This document shows, piece after piece, positions 43,618-54,263 of a stretch of DNA of 64,000 nt; within the stretch, counting starts at the first letter, position 1; every line of letters begins with the position of its first letter. The notes under the pieces are model-generated. The model made no database searches, was not told the origin of the DNA, and saw only the letters and a program-made list of their open reading frames with translations. The translations under genes and the position numbers were made by a program. The DNA lies in assembly GCA_944391085.1 (NCBI GenBank), contig CALXSE010000002.1, positions 10,450 through 74,449 on the forward strand, written 5' to 3'. The DNA is from an uncultured Kiritimatiellota bacterium. GTDB taxonomy: Bacteria; Verrucomicrobiota; Kiritimatiellia; RFP12; DVOR01.

Positions 43618-44754
43618 ATGGAACTGACAGTTGCGGCGGCGATGATTGTGGACGTTCGGGGCGCGGTGCTTTGCGTGCGGCGCGGCGCCAAAGGCTTTCC
43701 CTCCACGGCGGAGAAATGGGAATTCCCGGGCGGCAAGCTCGAACCCGGCGAGACGGCTTCCCAGGCGGCGGTGCGCGAGGTGCGTGAGGAACTGGGCCTT
43801 GACGTCGAGGCCTTGGCCGAAACGCCGCCCGTCCGCCACGTTTACCCTGAGTTTTCCATCACCCTCCACGGCGTGCTCTGCGCGCCCCTCGGCGGCGGCT
43901 CCCCCACCCCGACGCTCCGCGAGCACACGGATTTCGCCTGGACGCTCCCAGACCAACTGTGGCGGCATGATTTCGCGGCGGCGGACACCGCCCTGCTCAT
44001 CCAACTGCGCGAGCGCTTCTTCGGCAGTCGCCTGCGCACCCAAACCTTTGGGCGCGCCGCCCGCTTCCTGCCGGAAAGCGCCAGCACCAACACAGACGCC
44101 CTGGCTTGGGCCGAGGCCGGCGCGCCGGAGGGCGCCCTGGTCGTGGCCGAACGCCAAACGGCGGGACGGGGGCGACTGGGCCGCACGTGGGAAACCGCGC
44201 CCGGGCAGTGCCTGACCTTTTCGCTGTTGGCGCGCCCCAAAGCCCCGCCCGAGGTGGCCGCGACCCTGCCTTTGGTGGCCGGCTTGGCCGTGGCGGAGGC
44301 GCTCCGCGCCCGCGGCTTCGAGGCAGGGCTCAAGTGGCCCAACGACGTCCTTATCGGCGAACGCAAAGTCTGCGGCATCCTCTGCGAGGCGCAGACCTCC
44401 GCGCGGGGCATCGAGGGTATCGTCGTGGGCATTGGCGTGAACACCGGCACGGTGCCGGGGGCGTTGGCCCACCGCGCCGTCGGCCTCGGCGGCGTTGATC
44501 GCCTGTGCCTGCTGGCCGAGATTTGCGCCGCCTTTGAGGCCCTCTACGCCCGCTGGGCCACAGGTGGGCTGCGCGCCCTCCGCGCCGAGCTCGACGCGCT
44601 GGACTGCAAGCGCGGCAAAACCATCCGCGTCCGTCCCGCCGCCGGCGAGATCGCGGGGCTTGCCCTTGGCATCCGTGACGACGGCGCGCTCCTCCTCCAA
44701 CACGGCGACGGGATCGAGCCAATCCTTTGCGGCGAAATCGCCCAATGGGACTGA
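43618..44754 (+). CDS. birA: NUDIX hydrolase (MutT-like) fused to biotin--protein ligase
   Basis: Residues 1-130 carry the Nudix box GGKLEPGETASQAAVREVREELGL. The remainder has the BirA catalytic motif AERQTAGRGRLGRTWE, KWPNDVL and a C-terminal SH3-like tail. There is no N-terminal HTH. Confidence 0.85.
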   Translation: MELTVAAAMIVDVRGAVLCVRRGAKGFPSTAEKWEFPGGKLEPGETASQAAVREVREELGLDVEALAETPPVRHVYPEFSITLHGVLCAPLGGGSPTPTLREHTDFAWTLPDQLWRHDFAAADTALLIQLRERFFGSRLRTQTFGRAARFLPESASTNTDALAWAEAGAPEGALVVAERQTAGRGRLGRTWETAPGQCLTFSLLARPKAPPEVAATLPLVAGLAVAEALRARGFEAGLKWPNDVLIGERKVCGILCEAQTSARGIEGIVVGIGVNTGTVPGALAHRAVGLGGVDRLCLLAEICAAFEALYARWATGGLRALRAELDALDCKRGKTIRVRPAAGEIAGLALGIRDDGALLLQHGDGIEPILCGEIAQWD

Positions 44755-48722: not shown

Positions 48723-49533
48723 TTCCTCGGCGCAGGGCCTCCCGCTGATCAAGGAAGAGGCTCTCTGCCTGAACGCCCGGCCCTTTTCCAAGACCTCGCA
48801 GATGGTCACGTGGCTGACGGCCGGGCATGGGCGCGTCACCACGCCGATCAAGGGCGCACAGCGGCCCAAGAGCGGCTTTGTGGGGCGCTACGACGTCGGC
48901 TACACCTGCGAGCTTGTCTTCTACGCCCGTGAACGCAACGGCGTCCACCACATCCGCGAATGCACGCCGCTGGCGTTGCGCGAGGGGCTTCGCCGCACGT
49001 GGCGCGGCGCCGAGGCCGCCGCGTATGCCTGTGACCTGACCCTGCGCACGGCGCAGCCCGGGATGGCGAACCCGGCGCTCTACCGGGCGTTGAGCGGGCT
49101 GTTGGACGTCCTGCCCGCCTGCGCGGCGCACGAGGCCACGCTCGCCCTGCTGTGGTTTGAGGCCACGTTGTTGTATGCGGTGGGCCTGGGGCCGGACTTT
49201 TCGCCGTGCGCCGCCTGCCCGGCCACGCCGCGGCGGCTCTTCTCGGTGGAAGAGGGGCGTTTCGTCTGCGAACACCGCCCTTCTCGGCTCCGCACGCCCC
49301 CCACCCTGACGCTTCACGACGACATCCCCGCGCTGTACCGCCGCTTCCTTGCCCATCCCCTTGCCGAGACGCTCGCGGAAGCCCGCGCGGCGGATCGCCG
49401 CGACGACCTGGGGCGGCCGGAGCCCTTCCCCGGCGTCTTCGGGCTGCGCCGGTTTCTCGGCGTCTTCCTCACGGCGCATCTCGACCTGCCGCCGGGGCCG
49501 CGCCGCACTGTGCTTGACCTCCTGATAGGATGA
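48706..49533 (+). CDS. recO: DNA repair protein RecO
   Basis: OB-fold N-terminus (EEALCLNARPFSKTSQMVTWLTAGHGRVTTPIKGAQRPKS) and a Cys-containing central motif (CAACPAT...FVCEH). The start is uncertain: GTG at 48706 or CTG at 48745. Confidence 0.8.
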   Translation: MASARDSSAQGLPLIKEEALCLNARPFSKTSQMVTWLTAGHGRVTTPIKGAQRPKSGFVGRYDVGYTCELVFYARERNGVHHIRECTPLALREGLRRTWRGAEAAAYACDLTLRTAQPGMANPALYRALSGLLDVLPACAAHEATLALLWFEATLLYAVGLGPDFSPCAACPATPRRLFSVEEGRFVCEHRPSRLRTPPTLTLHDDIPALYRRFLAHPLAETLAEARAADRRDDLGRPEPFPGVFGLRRFLGVFLTAHLDLPPGPRRTVLDLLIG

Positions 49534-49537
49534 GGTT

Positions 49538-49546
49538 TGCTATACT
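49538..49546 (+). promoter_or_regulatory. Extended -10 promoter TGCTATACT (leaderless configuration)
   Basis: Ends 6 nt before the ATG at 49553. Confidence 0.45.
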
Positions 49547-49552
49547 AGCGCC

Positions 49553-50953
49553 ATGATTACCTCCGCGGAGAGCGAGAGCGTTGTGTTCACCGGCGTGAGC
49601 GGCTGTTTCGCCGGCGCGGCAACGCCGCGTGCCTTTTGGAAGGCGACCCTGCGCAAGCAGTGTTTCCTGGAGCCTTACTCCGACGCCGACGCGGGGCGGT
49701 TGGTCGAGGCGCTCCTGCCCGGTTGCCGCGCCCCGGAGGTCTGCGCCGCGTTGGGCGAGAACTTTGCGTGCCGGGCCGACCACATCCCTTTGCCGGCCGA
49801 CCTCGGCGTGGGCGACAATCCCGATTTCTGGTTTGCCGCGCAGCTGATCCACGACGCGCTGACGGACGCCGGGCTTGCACCTTCGCCCGGGGAGGGTCGC
49901 ACCGACCGCCTGGCGCTTTACGTGGGTTATGACTCCGCCTTCAACCCGGCGGCGATGAACTGGATGTGGCACGCCGCGGCCATCGGGCAGATTGTCGGCA
50001 CGTTGCAGCGGTTCTTCCCCGGCGCGACCTTCGGGCAAATCAAGCGGCTCCGCGAGGAGCTCGCCGACACCTTGCCCCTGCTCAAGCGCCGGCAACTGGA
50101 ATTGGCGCGCGGCGAAGGCGTGGTGCGCCTGCTCGCGCAGACCTTCGGCGCGTGCGACATGGCCTGCCAATGCGCGATGGGCGAGGCCACCATCTTCGCG
50201 GGGCTGGAATCCGCGGCGAACGCATTGCGCCTGGGCCAGTGCGACGTGGCCGTGGCGGTGGCCCTTCAGCCGCCGATCCCCCCCACCCAGCTGGCCGGCG
50301 AGGCCGCGCTCACCCCCTTCTCCCCGCTTCGCGCGCTCACCCCCTTCTCCTCAGACCCGAAGGGGACGCTCCCCGGCGAGGGCGGCGCGGCCTTTGTGCT
50401 CCGCCGCCTGAGCGACGCCCGGCGCGAGGGGACGCGCCTTTACGCCAAACTTCACGGCAGCGCGGTCGTCTCTGGCCTGCCGCCCGCTGACGGCGGGTTG
50501 GAGGAGAGCCTCCGCCGCGCCCTCCACCGCGCCCTGCGCCGCTTGCCGAACGGGTTCCGCGATGTGGATTATTGGGAGATGAACGCCTCCGGGATCGGCG
50601 AGGAGGACGAGGCCGAGCGCGCGGTGCTGAGGCTCATGACCGGCAACCGCGGCGCGCACATCCCGCTTTTGGCCCTGGGCTCGGCGAAGACGGCCTTCGG
50701 CAACGCCTTCACGGCGGCGGGGGCGCTCGGCGTGCTCAAGGGCGTGCTGGCCGTCGGGCACCGTGTGCTCCCGCCCTCGGTGACGCCGGTGGACGATTTC
50801 TCGCCCGCCCTCGCGCCGGATCAGGCGTGCTACTGGGTGCAGGAGGCCCGCCCCTGGATCGCGGCCTCCACGCGCAAGCGGCGGCTGGCCGTTTCCACGC
50901 TCTCGCGTTTCGGCAGGGCCGGGGCGGCGACGCTCGAGGAGATCACGGGGTGA
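49553..50953 (+). CDS. Ketosynthase-like protein with substituted catalytic triad (probable pseudo-KS)
   Basis: It aligns by eye with the type-I PKS KS over its full length. The His motifs read VDYWEMNASG and GSAKTAFGNAF (both His replaced by Asn). The nucleophile position appears to be Glu in an ungapped register. Confidence 0.75.
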   Translation: MITSAESESVVFTGVSGCFAGAATPRAFWKATLRKQCFLEPYSDADAGRLVEALLPGCRAPEVCAALGENFACRADHIPLPADLGVGDNPDFWFAAQLIHDALTDAGLAPSPGEGRTDRLALYVGYDSAFNPAAMNWMWHAAAIGQIVGTLQRFFPGATFGQIKRLREELADTLPLLKRRQLELARGEGVVRLLAQTFGACDMACQCAMGEATIFAGLESAANALRLGQCDVAVAVALQPPIPPTQLAGEAALTPFSPLRALTPFSSDPKGTLPGEGGAAFVLRRLSDARREGTRLYAKLHGSAVVSGLPPADGGLEESLRRALHRALRRLPNGFRDVDYWEMNASGIGEEDEAERAVLRLMTGNRGAHIPLLALGSAKTAFGNAFTAAGALGVLKGVLAVGHRVLPPSVTPVDDFSPALAPDQACYWVQEARPWIAASTRKRRLAVSTLSRFGRAGAATLEEITG

Positions 50954-50966
50954 AGGAGGCCCGCTG

Positions 50967-53900
50967 ATGGCGCTGGAACGTTCCGAGGGCGTGCTCTGTC
51001 TGATCGGCGCCGAGACGCCGCAGGCGTTGGCCGAGACCATCGCGCGGATCCTCGGCTTCGTCACCAAGAGCCGCGGCGTCCGCCTGATCGACGTGGTCTA
51101 CACCGCCACCTGCGACGCGCGCGGCAGGCAGTGCGTGGCCGGCCTCTGGGTGGCGAGCCTGGAAGAGATGGCGCGCAAGCTCCGCTTCGCCCTCGAGGCC
51201 CTGCGCAGCGGCCGCACGCGGACCCGCGAGAAATCCGGCGTCTTCTTCACCACGCATCCGCTGGCGCTCCACGGCGGCAAACTCGCCTATATCTTTCCCG
51301 GGACCGGGAGCTTCCATCTCGAAATGATGCGGGATCTTGCGCTTACCTTCGACGGCGTGCGCGAGCGCTTCGATGACATGGAGGAGGCCTTCTCGGGCTT
51401 CTGCGACGTCGCCTCGCCCTCCGAGTGGCTCTTTTCAACATCCCCCGAGCATACCCTGCCGCTCAGTGCCTCGCAGGCCTTCCTGCCGCTTCTGGCCTCC
51501 GCCTCCACCTATCTCGCCAGCAAGGTCTTCGCCGACCTCCTCAAATCCGTCGGCGTGCGGCCGGATGCCGTGGGCGGCGTGGGGCTCGGGGCCTTTTCGG
51601 CCTTCCACGCCACGCACCACAATCCCAAGTTCCGCCTGGTCCAGATCCTCCGCGATGCGGGCCGGATGCTCCTCCGCCTCGGCGCGGAAGGCCGGGACCG
51701 TGCCCCATGGGTGCAGCTTACCGTCTCTGGCATCGAGGTTTCCCGCCTTCGCGAGTTGGCGCTGCGCGACCCCGCCCGCGTCGTCCTCACCCAAATCCTC
51801 ACGGACGACGATTGCGTTATGGCCATTTCCCCCGACAAGCAGGCCGAGGTCGAGATCGCCATCCACAACGGCGGCGGCGTCTCCGTGGCGGAGTCCCTCC
51901 CCGCCCCCTTCAACTCCGGCCACGGCGACGCGCCCATGCGCCGCCGCCTGCGAGACTTCTTCGTCAAATACGTCAACTGCGAGCCACAGATCCCGTTTTA
52001 TTCCTGCGTCGACGCCGCGCCCATGGGGCGCTCCACCTCCGCCGTCGTCGACGGCCTCATGGCCCAGATGATGGAGCCGCTCGATTTCCGCGCCATGATC
52101 CGCAGGATGTACGACGACGGCTGCCGCATCTTTGTCGAGGTCGGCGCGCGCGGCCTGCTCTCCCCTCTCATCGCCAAGAATCTTGCCGGGCGCGACCCCG
52201 TGGCCGTCATCCCCATGCACATTCTGCATCGCTCCGGCGGCGTCCAGGTTGGGCAGGCGCTGGGGCTCCTCGCCGCAAACGGCGCCCCCATGGATTATTC
52301 CGGGCTTCGTTTCTTCGCCCACGCGCGCCGCCTTGACTTTTCCGTGCCGGTCCACGAAGAAGGCGCGGCCGCCCTTACCGTCCACCTGTCGCGCAGCCTC
52401 CCGGCCATCCGCCCCGAACTCATCGACGCCCAGCGGATCCTCTCCATGGTCGCCGCCGTGGGCCCCGAGGAGACCGGCGCCACCCACCTGCACGCCCTCC
52501 CCCTGGAGATCCCCGCCGGCGGCCTTGAATGCCCCCTCCTGCGCGGCGCCCAGGAGCTTGCCCGCACGGCGACCACCCTCGAGCTCCAATGCGTCCTGCG
52601 TCTGGCGGATTTCCCGTACCTCAACGACTACGCCATCGGCTCCTCCAACATCTCCCTGCGCGACCCCCAAACGCGCGGGCTCACCCTGCTCTCCGTCCCC
52701 TCCGGCCTCGAAATCATGGCCGAGGCCGCCCACCGCCTCTTCCCGGATCTCTCCCTCCGCCGCATCGAGACGCTCCGTGCCCCGCACTGGCTCGCCTTCG
52801 ACTTCGGCCGTTTGGGGCTCCGCCTCAGCGCCTCCGTCCTCAGCGATCCGACCCCCTCCGGCAACCGCACCGTCGCCGTGCGCCTCTGTGAGGATCGGGA
52901 AGAGGCCCCCCGCGTCGCCATGGAGGCACAATTCGTCCTCAGCCCCACCATTCCGGAGCCCCCCGAGGACCTCGCCGCGCAACCCCTTGCCAGCCCCGTC
53001 GACGTCGGGTGGAAAGCAGACGACATTTATCCCGCCCGCCTCTTCCAGGGCCCCCTCCTGCGCAATATCCGCGCCGTCGTCGGCTGGGGCCTCAACGGCC
53101 TTGACTACGAAATCCGCATCCCGTCCCGTGCCGCGCTCGTGCGCCGTTCCCGCAACCCCCTCTTCTGCGCTCTCCCGCTTTTGCTCGACGCCGTCGTCTC
53201 CGGTTTTCCCCTCTGGCGCTCCCACGAGCGTTTCCACGGCGCCATCTCCCTCCCCTTCCGCTGCAAGGCCATCCGCTACTATGCCGCCTGGCTCCCCGAA
53301 GGCACCCGCCTGCGGTGCTCCCTCCGCCTCACCAACGTCACCCCGCGCACCTTCGAGGTCGACATCCTCGCAATGGACGCCACCGGCCACCCCGTCCTCC
53401 GCGTCGAAGGCTGGGAAGAGGTCGGCGGGCGCGCCGGCCAGGCCCTCCACGACTTCGTGATGAACCCCTCGCGTTACTTCATCACCCAGCCCCTTCCGGA
53501 TTCGATTCTCCCCAAGAGCGCCAGGGACGGCGTGGACAAAACCATCGTCGGCGCCCTTTACGTCAACGCCAACCCGGACTTCTTCATCGCCAACCACGGC
53601 CTTTGGCTCAACGCCCTCGCCGCCGCCGTCCTTACCCAGAACGAGCGCGAGGACTTCGCCCAGATGGGCGGCGTCGCCCCGCGCCGCCTCGAATGGCTCC
53701 TCGGCCGCACCGCCGCCAAAGAGGCCGTCCGCCGCCTTCTCCTGGAGGTCTTCCGCCTCTACGAGCCTTCCGCCGACATCGCCGTCTGGAAGGACGAGCT
53801 CGGCAAACCCCACCCCCTCGGCGACTGGCAGCAGCAGATCTCCGCCCCCATCGACCTCTCCATCGCCCACACAGCCGGCCTTGTCATCGGCGGCGCCACC

Positions 53901-54263
53901 ACCCATGGCCGCCTCGGCTTCGACGTCGAATCCACCTCCCGCGACCTCACCGAGGACTTCCTCCGCGGCGTCTTCACCCTTGAGGAGCAGGAGCTTGCCA
54001 CGCGCAGCGGTGACGGCCCCATCGCCGTCCTCCGCTTCTGGTGCGCCAAGGAGGCCATCTCCAAAGCCCTCGGCACCGGCATCCGCTTCGCCCCCACAGA
54101 CCTGCGCATCCGCGCCTCCGACCCCGCCACCGGCGAGCTCGCCATCGAGCTCCTCGGCGCCTGGGCCGAGAATTTCCCCAACCTCCGCGGTAAGCGCATC
54201 CCCATCAAGACCGCCGTCCTCTACGACCATGCCATCGCCTGTTGCCACCTGCGCGACCCCTGA
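50967..54263 (+). CDS. AT-like / PKS-dehydratase-like / Sfp-type 4'-phosphopantetheinyl transferase fusion protein (1098 aa)
   Basis: GAAGGAGG SD upstream. YIFPGTGSFHLEMM is AT-like, but GHSxGE reads GGVGLGAF. FPYLNDYAIG corresponds to the DH LxDH motif with His replaced by Tyr. The C-terminal PPTase motifs are DELGKPHP, LGFDVES and FWCAKEAISKALG. Confidence 0.7.
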   Translation: MALERSEGVLCLIGAETPQALAETIARILGFVTKSRGVRLIDVVYTATCDARGRQCVAGLWVASLEEMARKLRFALEALRSGRTRTREKSGVFFTTHPLALHGGKLAYIFPGTGSFHLEMMRDLALTFDGVRERFDDMEEAFSGFCDVASPSEWLFSTSPEHTLPLSASQAFLPLLASASTYLASKVFADLLKSVGVRPDAVGGVGLGAFSAFHATHHNPKFRLVQILRDAGRMLLRLGAEGRDRAPWVQLTVSGIEVSRLRELALRDPARVVLTQILTDDDCVMAISPDKQAEVEIAIHNGGGVSVAESLPAPFNSGHGDAPMRRRLRDFFVKYVNCEPQIPFYSCVDAAPMGRSTSAVVDGLMAQMMEPLDFRAMIRRMYDDGCRIFVEVGARGLLSPLIAKNLAGRDPVAVIPMHILHRSGGVQVGQALGLLAANGAPMDYSGLRFFAHARRLDFSVPVHEEGAAALTVHLSRSLPAIRPELIDAQRILSMVAAVGPEETGATHLHALPLEIPAGGLECPLLRGAQELARTATTLELQCVLRLADFPYLNDYAIGSSNISLRDPQTRGLTLLSVPSGLEIMAEAAHRLFPDLSLRRIETLRAPHWLAFDFGRLGLRLSASVLSDPTPSGNRTVAVRLCEDREEAPRVAMEAQFVLSPTIPEPPEDLAAQPLASPVDVGWKADDIYPARLFQGPLLRNIRAVVGWGLNGLDYEIRIPSRAALVRRSRNPLFCALPLLLDAVVSGFPLWRSHERFHGAISLPFRCKAIRYYAAWLPEGTRLRCSLRLTNVTPRTFEVDILAMDATGHPVLRVEGWEEVGGRAGQALHDFVMNPSRYFITQPLPDSILPKSARDGVDKTIVGALYVNANPDFFIANHGLWLNALAAAVLTQNEREDFAQMGGVAPRRLEWLLGRTAAKEAVRRLLLEVFRLYEPSADIAVWKDELGKPHPLGDWQQQISAPIDLSIAHTAGLVIGGATTHGRLGFDVESTSRDLTEDFLRGVFTLEEQELATRSGDGPIAVLRFWCAKEAISKALGTGIRFAPTDLRIRASDPATGELAIELLGAWAENFPNLRGKRIPIKTAVLYDHAIACCHLRDP

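Follow-up and report, generated by a model that had tools for sequence, protein, structure and literature searches.

A degenerate ketosynthase-fold protein paired with the sole detected phosphopantetheinyl transferase of a Kiritimatiellia-type bacterium: a probable structural remnant of a PfaA/PKSE-like synthase

A 64,000-nucleotide stretch of DNA from an uncultured Kiritimatiellota bacterium (assembly GCA_944391085.1, contig CALXSE010000002.1, positions 10,450 to 74,449), referred to below as the window, carries two adjacent forward-strand genes that are the subject of this report. The first (49553..50953, +) encodes a 466-residue pseudoenzyme with the fold of a ketosynthase (KS), termed KS' here, and the second (50967..54263, +) encodes a 1098-residue partner. 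Pfam, NCBIfam and motif alignments divide the partner into a KS-acyltransferase (AT) linker, an AT-like domain, a dehydratase (DH)-like domain and an intact Sfp-type phosphopantetheinyl transferase (PPTase), a composition abbreviated as AT'-DH'-PPT. The letters themselves show a Shine-Dalgarno sequence for the partner gene, AAGGAGG (50953..50959, +), which shares bases with the stop codon of KS' and is 7 nucleotides from the downstream ATG at 50967. KS' directly precedes the gene that holds the sole PF01648 (PPTase) match in the host genome, a draft of 1.73 Mb that is 89% complete.

The initial annotation, made by eye, had described the product of the first gene as a KS-fold protein along its full 466-residue open reading frame (ORF), and this description is borne out by profile searches, structure prediction and structural comparison. 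Both Pfam halves of a thiolase-fold KS domain are matched above their cut-offs, PF00109 at 51.2 bits and PF02801 at 51.7 bits. The PF00109 match is confined to profile positions 178–252, that is, the last third of the N-terminal domain, and it stops just past the place where the nucleophile is expected. Among NCBIfam models, those for type I polyketide synthases (PKSs), PfaA and FabF are matched weakly and below threshold. For example, TIGR02813 (PfaA) aligns with residues 256–456 only, at 70 bits, which is far under its cut-off. An AlphaFold2 model computed with 46 family sequences as input reached a mean predicted local distance difference test score (pLDDT) of 86.9 and a predicted template-modelling score (pTM) of 0.90. 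Foldseek paired this model with type I PKS KS domains at template-modelling scores of 0.72–0.80, and the top structure was 7uwr, the KSQ-AT didomain of PikAI from the pikromycin loading module.

Condensing KSs employ a Cys-His-His triad, which is written below in the order nucleophile, His of the HGTGT motif (His1) and His of the KxxxGH motif (His2), so that the canonical state is C/H/H. Both His residues had been read as Asn at the outset, and three methods agree with that reading. In phmmer alignments with solved KSs, 'yweMNasgigeedeae' is paired with 'yvEaHGTGTxlGDpiE', which sets Asn344 (codon AAC, 50582..50584, +) in place of the HGTGT His, and 'lgsaktafgNaf' is paired with 'lGSvKsNiGHxe', which sets Asn384 (codon AAC, 50702..50704, +) in place of the KxxxGH His. 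Alignment to a canonical KS profile with hhalign, and multiple alignment with MAFFT, yield the same two assignments, and the codons were checked for both residues. The active-site Lys of KSs is kept as Lys379 (codon AAG, 50687..50689, +).

The register at the nucleophile differs by method, with phmmer choosing C205, hhalign C207 and an ungapped MAFFT alignment E211. Against 7zma, phmmer places DTAC on D202–C205 ('DMAC') with 6 residues of gap, while hhalign brings the canonical Cys onto C207 at the cost of a 4-residue gap. BLASTP aligns KS' with its homologue P0148 over residues 119–298 without a gap, and P0148 with the canonical Streptomyces KS P0055 without a gap across the motif; by these two steps, E211 corresponds to G213 of P0148 and so to the Cys of DTAC. 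Near the elbow, the KS' model consists of a strand (204–206), a loop (207–209) and a continuous 17-residue helix (210–226). D231 lies at +20 from E211, the spacing that also separates C163 from D183 in E. coli FabF. A bridging sequence from locus L037 sets GPAAICDNGDTS against the canonical GPxxxVDTACSS. Because of the ungapped transitive alignments, the helix register of the model and the bridging sequence, Glu211 (codon GAG, 50183..50185, +, codon checked) is assigned to the nucleophile elbow, and the triad of KS' is read as E211/N344/N384.

An ungapped count in the initial annotation had arrived at the same Glu, and this part of it is upheld by the transitive BLASTP alignments and the model helix. 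It had also suggested that a gapped alignment could rescue a Cys from the nearby 'DMACQC' string, which the register evidence does not bear out. The gapped placement on C205 or C207 was rejected as an alignment artefact: the gap falls inside the 17-residue helix, BLASTP needs no gap and C205 is poorly conserved. In ungapped alignments, C207 coincides with the –4 Val of canonical VDTAC and C205 with position –6, and 'DMAC' falls on canonical 'GPxx'. Alignments and conservation thus locate Cys205-Gln206-Cys207 (50165..50173, +) in the strand and loop before the elbow, not at the nucleophile site. A proper alignment does not restore Cys-His-His, an outcome that had been left open, and KS' lacks each of the catalytic features of a condensing KS, namely a Cys at the start of the active-site helix, the HGTGT His and the KxxxGH His. 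It would be unable to form an acyl-enzyme, because it has no Cys, and unable to decarboxylate malonyl units, because both His residues are gone.

The close family of KS' consists of 46 clusters at 32–96% identity. Their triads are E/N/H in 30, E/N/N in 11 (the window included), D/N/H in three, E/H/H in one and I/D/H in one. Position by position, the nucleophile place is held by E in 42 clusters, D in three and I in one; position 344 is N in 44; and position 384 is H in 35 and N in 11. The last of these flips between H and N among close relatives, so that the 85%-identical P0002, for instance, has His. Lys379 is invariant: all 46 clusters have it, as does every relative at order and class level. 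A Cys stands at 207 in 43 clusters and at 205 in only 25, and the position of C207 is taken by V, L, I or F in order-level relatives. The substitutions in KS' are consequently not private to this one sequence, a concern raised at first sight. Whether the three substitutions are conserved together had also been asked, and here the answer is divided: the Glu and the first Asn mostly are, and the second His is kept in most relatives. The full E/N/N state is accordingly a sub-lineage variant.

KS' is under strong purifying selection. The ratio of nonsynonymous to synonymous substitution rates (dN/dS, Nei-Gojobori) is 0.07 against a 96%-identical orthologue and 0.09 against an 85%-identical one, alignment columns of the close family are 64% identical on average, and about 45 intact full-length homologues were found at 49–96% identity. 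In a sample of 301 genomes of the phylum, 34 have the gene, each in exactly one copy. These comprise all 14 genomes of the same genus (the window's own counted), the family's two other genera, the majority of the order's families (family f5 not among them) and three genomes from another family of the class. All genomes sampled from the genus, and most from the order, have the ORF intact and at constant length, with identity falling as low as 29%.

The gene is also consistently paired with its partner. Twenty loci (L037–L056) were fetched and their triad positions read; in 19 of them KS' lies directly upstream of an AT'-DH'-PPT homologue, and in seven loci the computed end of the KS' ORF and start of the partner ORF overlap by 4 bases. 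The partner has also degenerated, with the exception of its last domain. In the window, the GHSxG motif of the AT-like domain has become GVGLG, the catalytic His of the DH-like (PS-DH) domain is a Tyr in LNDYAIG, and the PPTase (an ACPS-family domain) has both of its motifs, GFDVE and FWCAKEAISKALG, intact. The same pattern holds in partners across the order. The DH His is lost in every member examined, being replaced by Y, F, G, C or R, and the AT His-Ser pair is lost in nearly all (GFSGG, GVGxG, GAGVG), the AT of L045 keeping its residues. The PPTase motifs GIDxE and FWCAKEAxSKALGTGIR are near-invariant.

Live counterparts of both genes occur at class level. The KS' relatives L053–L055 are canonical, with DAACASS, EAHGTG or EAHATG, GSVKSMIGH and GFGGINxH, and live class-level partners have FPGEGAQ, GHSSG, YHT and LxDH. 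Within the order, the triads A/H/H, G/H/H, A/Y/H, A/D/H, V/D/H, V/E/H, F/E/H, S/N/H and E/N/H were recorded. The window's own family includes C/H/H in L042 (genus g3), D/N/H in genus g2, and E/N/H or E/N/N in the window's genus. Over the order as a whole, the nucleophile position is A, G, S, V, F, L, I, E or D (C in L042) and the His1 position H, N, D, E or Y, while the Lys and structural Gly, Pro, Asp and Glu residues stay constant. A position that accepts this many residues in orthologues is not under catalytic constraint, and Glu211 is best regarded, from the sequences compared, as a lineage-specific filling and not as a conserved new catalyst.

In a maximum-likelihood tree, the live C/H/H proteins branch as the sister group of all degenerate KS' proteins (support 100/99). 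Since L042 falls inside the degenerate, Cys-less clade, either there were several independent losses of Cys and His1 or Cys was regained once. The L042 locus (G245:C24) is of mixed state: its KS' has DLGCLS, EAHASG and GHT, and both the AT (GVGVG) and the DH (DF) of its partner are dead.

The live orthologues also disclose where KS' comes from. L054 matches TIGR02813 end to end (positions 4–463, 398 bits), and because a live orthologue spans the PfaA KS region in this way, the ancestry of KS' is placed by sequence comparison in the PfaA/PKSE-type KS clade. The end-to-end similarity that marks this clade, including a helical insertion before the active-site strand, is seen through the live orthologue and the tree. 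Two distant relatives are single polypeptides with intact motifs, P0278 (1586 residues) with the order KS-AT-DH-PPT and P0277 (1830 residues) with the order KS-AT-acyl carrier protein (ACP)-DH-PPT. In appearance they are the KS'/partner unit before splitting and degeneration, and such natural fusions constitute Rosetta-stone evidence that KS and AT-DH-PPT belong to one functional unit. True fusions were found only among these distant live relatives. Open frames of ~1,500 residues that seemed to join KS' and its partner in L037 and L053 were discarded as an artefact of high GC content, the two genes being in different frames.

A profile search of 1.84 billion representatives was dominated by giant multimodular PKSs with summed KS scores, and only P0085, P0127 and P0148 were usable from it. 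P0085, a metagenomic protein of 2257 residues, is built of four KS domains in tandem with a DH after them. Its KS1 (Y/H/H), the strongest match to the KS' profile from a multi-domain protein, and its KS3, in which the second His is Tyr, alternate with canonical KS2 and KS4.

A census of PF01648 matches sets the surviving domain in context. A single match was found in most of 81 draft genomes of the order. In the genomes where KS' was traced, the match and KS' share a contig and are separated by a few kb, and in other genomes of the order the match falls within an open frame that is similarly long, open-frame length in high-GC DNA being a rough guide only. In family f5, which is without KS', the PPTase is in a frame of ~280–350 residues, with one of 606. 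Where KS, AT and DH are live, in the class-level genomes, a standalone PPTase is encoded elsewhere in the genome. G098 has both a fused and a standalone PPTase, and G230 and G110 have the fusion without its PPT part. No description of a KS'/AT'-DH'-PPTase unit was found in searches of the literature on PPTases in Kiritimatiellia or on PKS-integrated PPTases.

Candidate clients for the PPTase were identified by sequence in the window's genome. An AcpP with the DSL motif adjoins fabD, and two further carrier proteins are encoded outside the window in a small cluster on another contig (G000:C14:3587-6414), where a carrier protein (GWDS), a FabH-like KAS III with a Cys-His-Asn triad and a second carrier protein (TWDS) lie together. 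The same cluster encodes a 478-residue protein that, by eye, resembles an FkbH-type HAD enzyme.

The explanation that we favor, and hold to be reasonably likely, is that KS' is a dead KS retained as a subunit, with a structural or docking role, of a fossil synthase of PfaA/PKSE-like type, which survives as a housekeeping PPTase. The ancestor would have been an iterative synthase of the PfaA/PKSE kind with the order KS-AT-(ACP)-DH-PPTase and hence an integrated PPTase, and in this Kiritimatiellia-type order it would have been split after the KS. Since the DH His is gone in all members, the biosynthetic function would have been lost in the order's ancestor. Loss of the standalone PPTase would then have left the integrated Sfp-type enzyme as the only one, after which the catalytic residues of KS and AT may have decayed mosaically, with the folds kept by purifying selection. 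KS' would now be an obligatory structural partner that provides the KS core on which the KS-AT linker and the AT pack. In such a complex with the AT'-DH'-PPT protein, it would stabilize and probably dimerize its partner and may well supply the former carrier-protein docking surface, and the PPTase would presumably serve AcpP and other carrier proteins. The view of the initial annotation, that this is a non-condensing KS put to some other use (scaffold, gatekeeper or different chemistry), is supported by these results. Of the uses named there, a scaffold fits the pairing with the AT'-DH'-PPTase gene; a different chemistry is disfavored, as the nucleophile and His1 positions vary across the order.

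Several points weigh against this explanation. In genome G007 (L052 and L057), KS' (C8:504412-505785) and the AT'-DH'-PPT gene (C8, ~62.7–66 kb) are ~440 kb apart, and both genes are nonetheless intact and retained. An AcpS could have been missed in the 89%-complete genome of the window, a possibility against which the order-wide single-PPTase pattern argues. Sfp-type PPTases are normally small monomers, and it is not obvious why one should need a shell of ~1,560 residues. Lastly, the high conservation of Glu211, Asn344 and Cys207 at genus level could point to a lineage-specific function for KS' and not to a passive plug.

There is a bolder form of the same idea, which we consider rather unlikely. 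Here, the dead KS', AT' and DH', all of them once modules that bound carrier proteins, would together make up a docking platform of two subunits and ~1,560 residues, obligatory for the order's only holo-carrier-protein synthase, and the recurrent acid of the KS' pocket (Glu or Asp at the Cys or His1 position), facing the invariant Lys379, would be a selected plug, or a sensor of a ligand or of phosphopantetheine, as opposed to a product of neutral decay. If this were true, a fossil ketosynthase would be required for the essential PPTase activity of the cell and might serve to regulate it.

An alternative is that the pocket has acquired a new chemistry, in which Glu211, Asn344, His or Asn384 and Lys379 hydrolyze or decarboxylate an acyl- or malonyl-carrier thioester, or bind a ligand that regulates the PPTase. 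We judge this improbable. The family at genus level lends it some weight, with E211 in 42, N344 in 44 and K379 in all 46 clusters, and so does the repeated appearance of acids in the pocket. Nine of the 11 residue combinations without His1 include an acidic pocket residue. Where the acid (E or D) replaces the Cys, N is found at His1; where it (D or E) replaces His1, the Cys position is A, V, L, I or F. The two combinations without an acid are S/N/H and A/Y/H. Furthermore, E/N/H has two independent origins, one in genus g1 and the other in L051. The recurrent acid may, judging from these combinations, be a compensating partner for the invariant Lys379. However, syntenic orthologues with A/H/H, G/H/H, A/Y/H and S/N/H have no acid at either position, which is not what a single conserved chemistry would produce, and position 384 flips between H and N among close relatives. 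Moreover, the two His residues that a KS needs for decarboxylation are both absent from KS' (PMC7327777).

Less probable still is a transacylase of the KS0 kind, in which C207 or C205 would reach into the pocket and an acyl chain would be passed on without elongation. Such a role would draw on the gapped hhalign and phmmer alignments that put the canonical Cys on C207 or C205, on the retention of C207 in 43 of the 46 clusters, and on the HGTG His, which is missing in KS0 domains as it is in KS' (PMC7327777). The ungapped alignments that place C207 at –4 and C205 at –6 speak against it, and so does the hhalign gap, which splits a helix of the model. In addition, C205 is kept in only 25 of the 46 clusters, C207 gives way to V, L, I or F in order-level relatives, and the locus offers no ACP, live AT or assembly line for such an enzyme to serve.

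A role as a chain-length factor (CLF) is, if anything, slightly harder to credit. KS paralogues without the Cys are the CLFs of type II PKSs and polyunsaturated fatty acid (PUFA) synthases, and by analogy KS' would heterodimerize with a genuine KAS II (FabF) and modulate fatty-acid chain length or priming. The genome does encode one canonical FabF, and in P0085 the first KS lacks the Cys (Y/H/H) and the second is canonical. On the other hand, the orthologue of KS' in the live unit is the catalytic C/H/H KS and not a CLF, KS' is syntenic with AT'-DH'-PPT and not with fab genes (FabF is on another contig), and fused KS-AT-DH-PPT relatives exist. That KS' is merely a recently inactivated KS heading for loss, as the replacement of all three catalytic residues might imply, is effectively refuted by a dN/dS of 0.07–0.09, intact ORFs of constant length throughout the genus and most of the order, and 64% mean column identity.

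The unit resembles several known systems, and none of them completely. KS0 domains of trans-AT PKSs keep the nucleophile Cys, pass the chain on and sit in an assembly line beside ACPs. KS', by comparison, has Glu for the Cys and Asn for both His residues, is free-standing and has no ACP or live AT around it. What the two have in common is the KS fold, the lack of condensation, the missing HGTG His and a role regarded as structural or as one of transfer (PMC7327777). Of the traits that define KS0, the loss of the HGTG His is thus present in KS', and a retained Cys and an ACP or assembly line at the locus are not.

KSQ domains and CLFs carry Gln at the Cys position, and KSQ keeps both His residues to decarboxylate malonyl units (PMC7327777). 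KS' is like these proteins in that its Cys is replaced and condensation is lost, and a KSQ-AT structure (7uwr) is its best structural match. Unlike them, it has Glu and not Gln, and both of its His residues are gone; neither the Gln nor the His pair of KSQ is found, and decarboxylation is not expected.

The KS of PfaA-type PUFA synthases is akin to KS' through the live orthologue that spans the PfaA KS region. In enediyne PKSs (PKSEs) such as CalE8 and SgcE, which have an integrated C-terminal PPTase domain, the domain order is KS-AT-ACP-KR-DH-PPTase, where KR is a ketoreductase. The relatives P0277 and P0278, with KS-AT-(ACP)-DH-PPT, come close to this arrangement, and their DH-PPTase end resembles the PKSE layout. 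The same six domains are reported for CalE8, their order not being stated (PMC3107222). In overall layout, the unit in the window is similar to PKSE and to PfaA. It differs from both in being split after the KS, in having no ACP or KR and in the death of its KS, AT and DH. It also differs from PKSE in that its PPTase apparently serves the whole cell and not an ACP of its own. A further parallel is the alpha subunit of fungal type I fatty acid synthase (FAS), which has a C-terminal PPT domain beside a KS, with all domains active and the PPT modifying an ACP in cis. The likeness here is a housekeeping PPTase activity housed inside a megasynthase next to a KS.

Known non-condensing KSs (KS0, KSQ and CLF) keep part of the catalytic machinery inside live assembly lines. 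KS', unlike these, lacks the Cys and both His residues and is separately encoded, yet it is strongly selected. The apparent reason is that the fossil synthase to which it belongs bears the only PPTase detected in these genomes, which makes it a clear example from nature of a pseudoenzyme shell that a single essential domain, still alive, holds in place. The pairing is also relevant to how the fatty-acid ACP of Kiritimatiellia-type bacteria is activated without AcpS. The family also forms a graded series, from live and fused, through live and split with a spare PPTase, to dead and split with the fused PPTase as the only one, and this series can be used to ask what the KS, AT and DH folds contribute apart from catalysis.

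A few minor features of the surrounding sequence may be added. KS' itself has no Shine-Dalgarno sequence. An extended –10-like element, TGcTATACT (49538-49546), ends 6 nucleotides before its ATG at 49553, and a TTGACC lies 21 nucleotides upstream of that element, too distant for a standard –35. The stop codon of the preceding recO gene is at 49531-49533. Judging from this region (window 49514-49555), KS' may be expressed from a leaderless mRNA or co-transcribed with recO. Elsewhere in the window (43618-44754), Pfam identifies a NUDIX domain fused N-terminally to a biotin-protein ligase.

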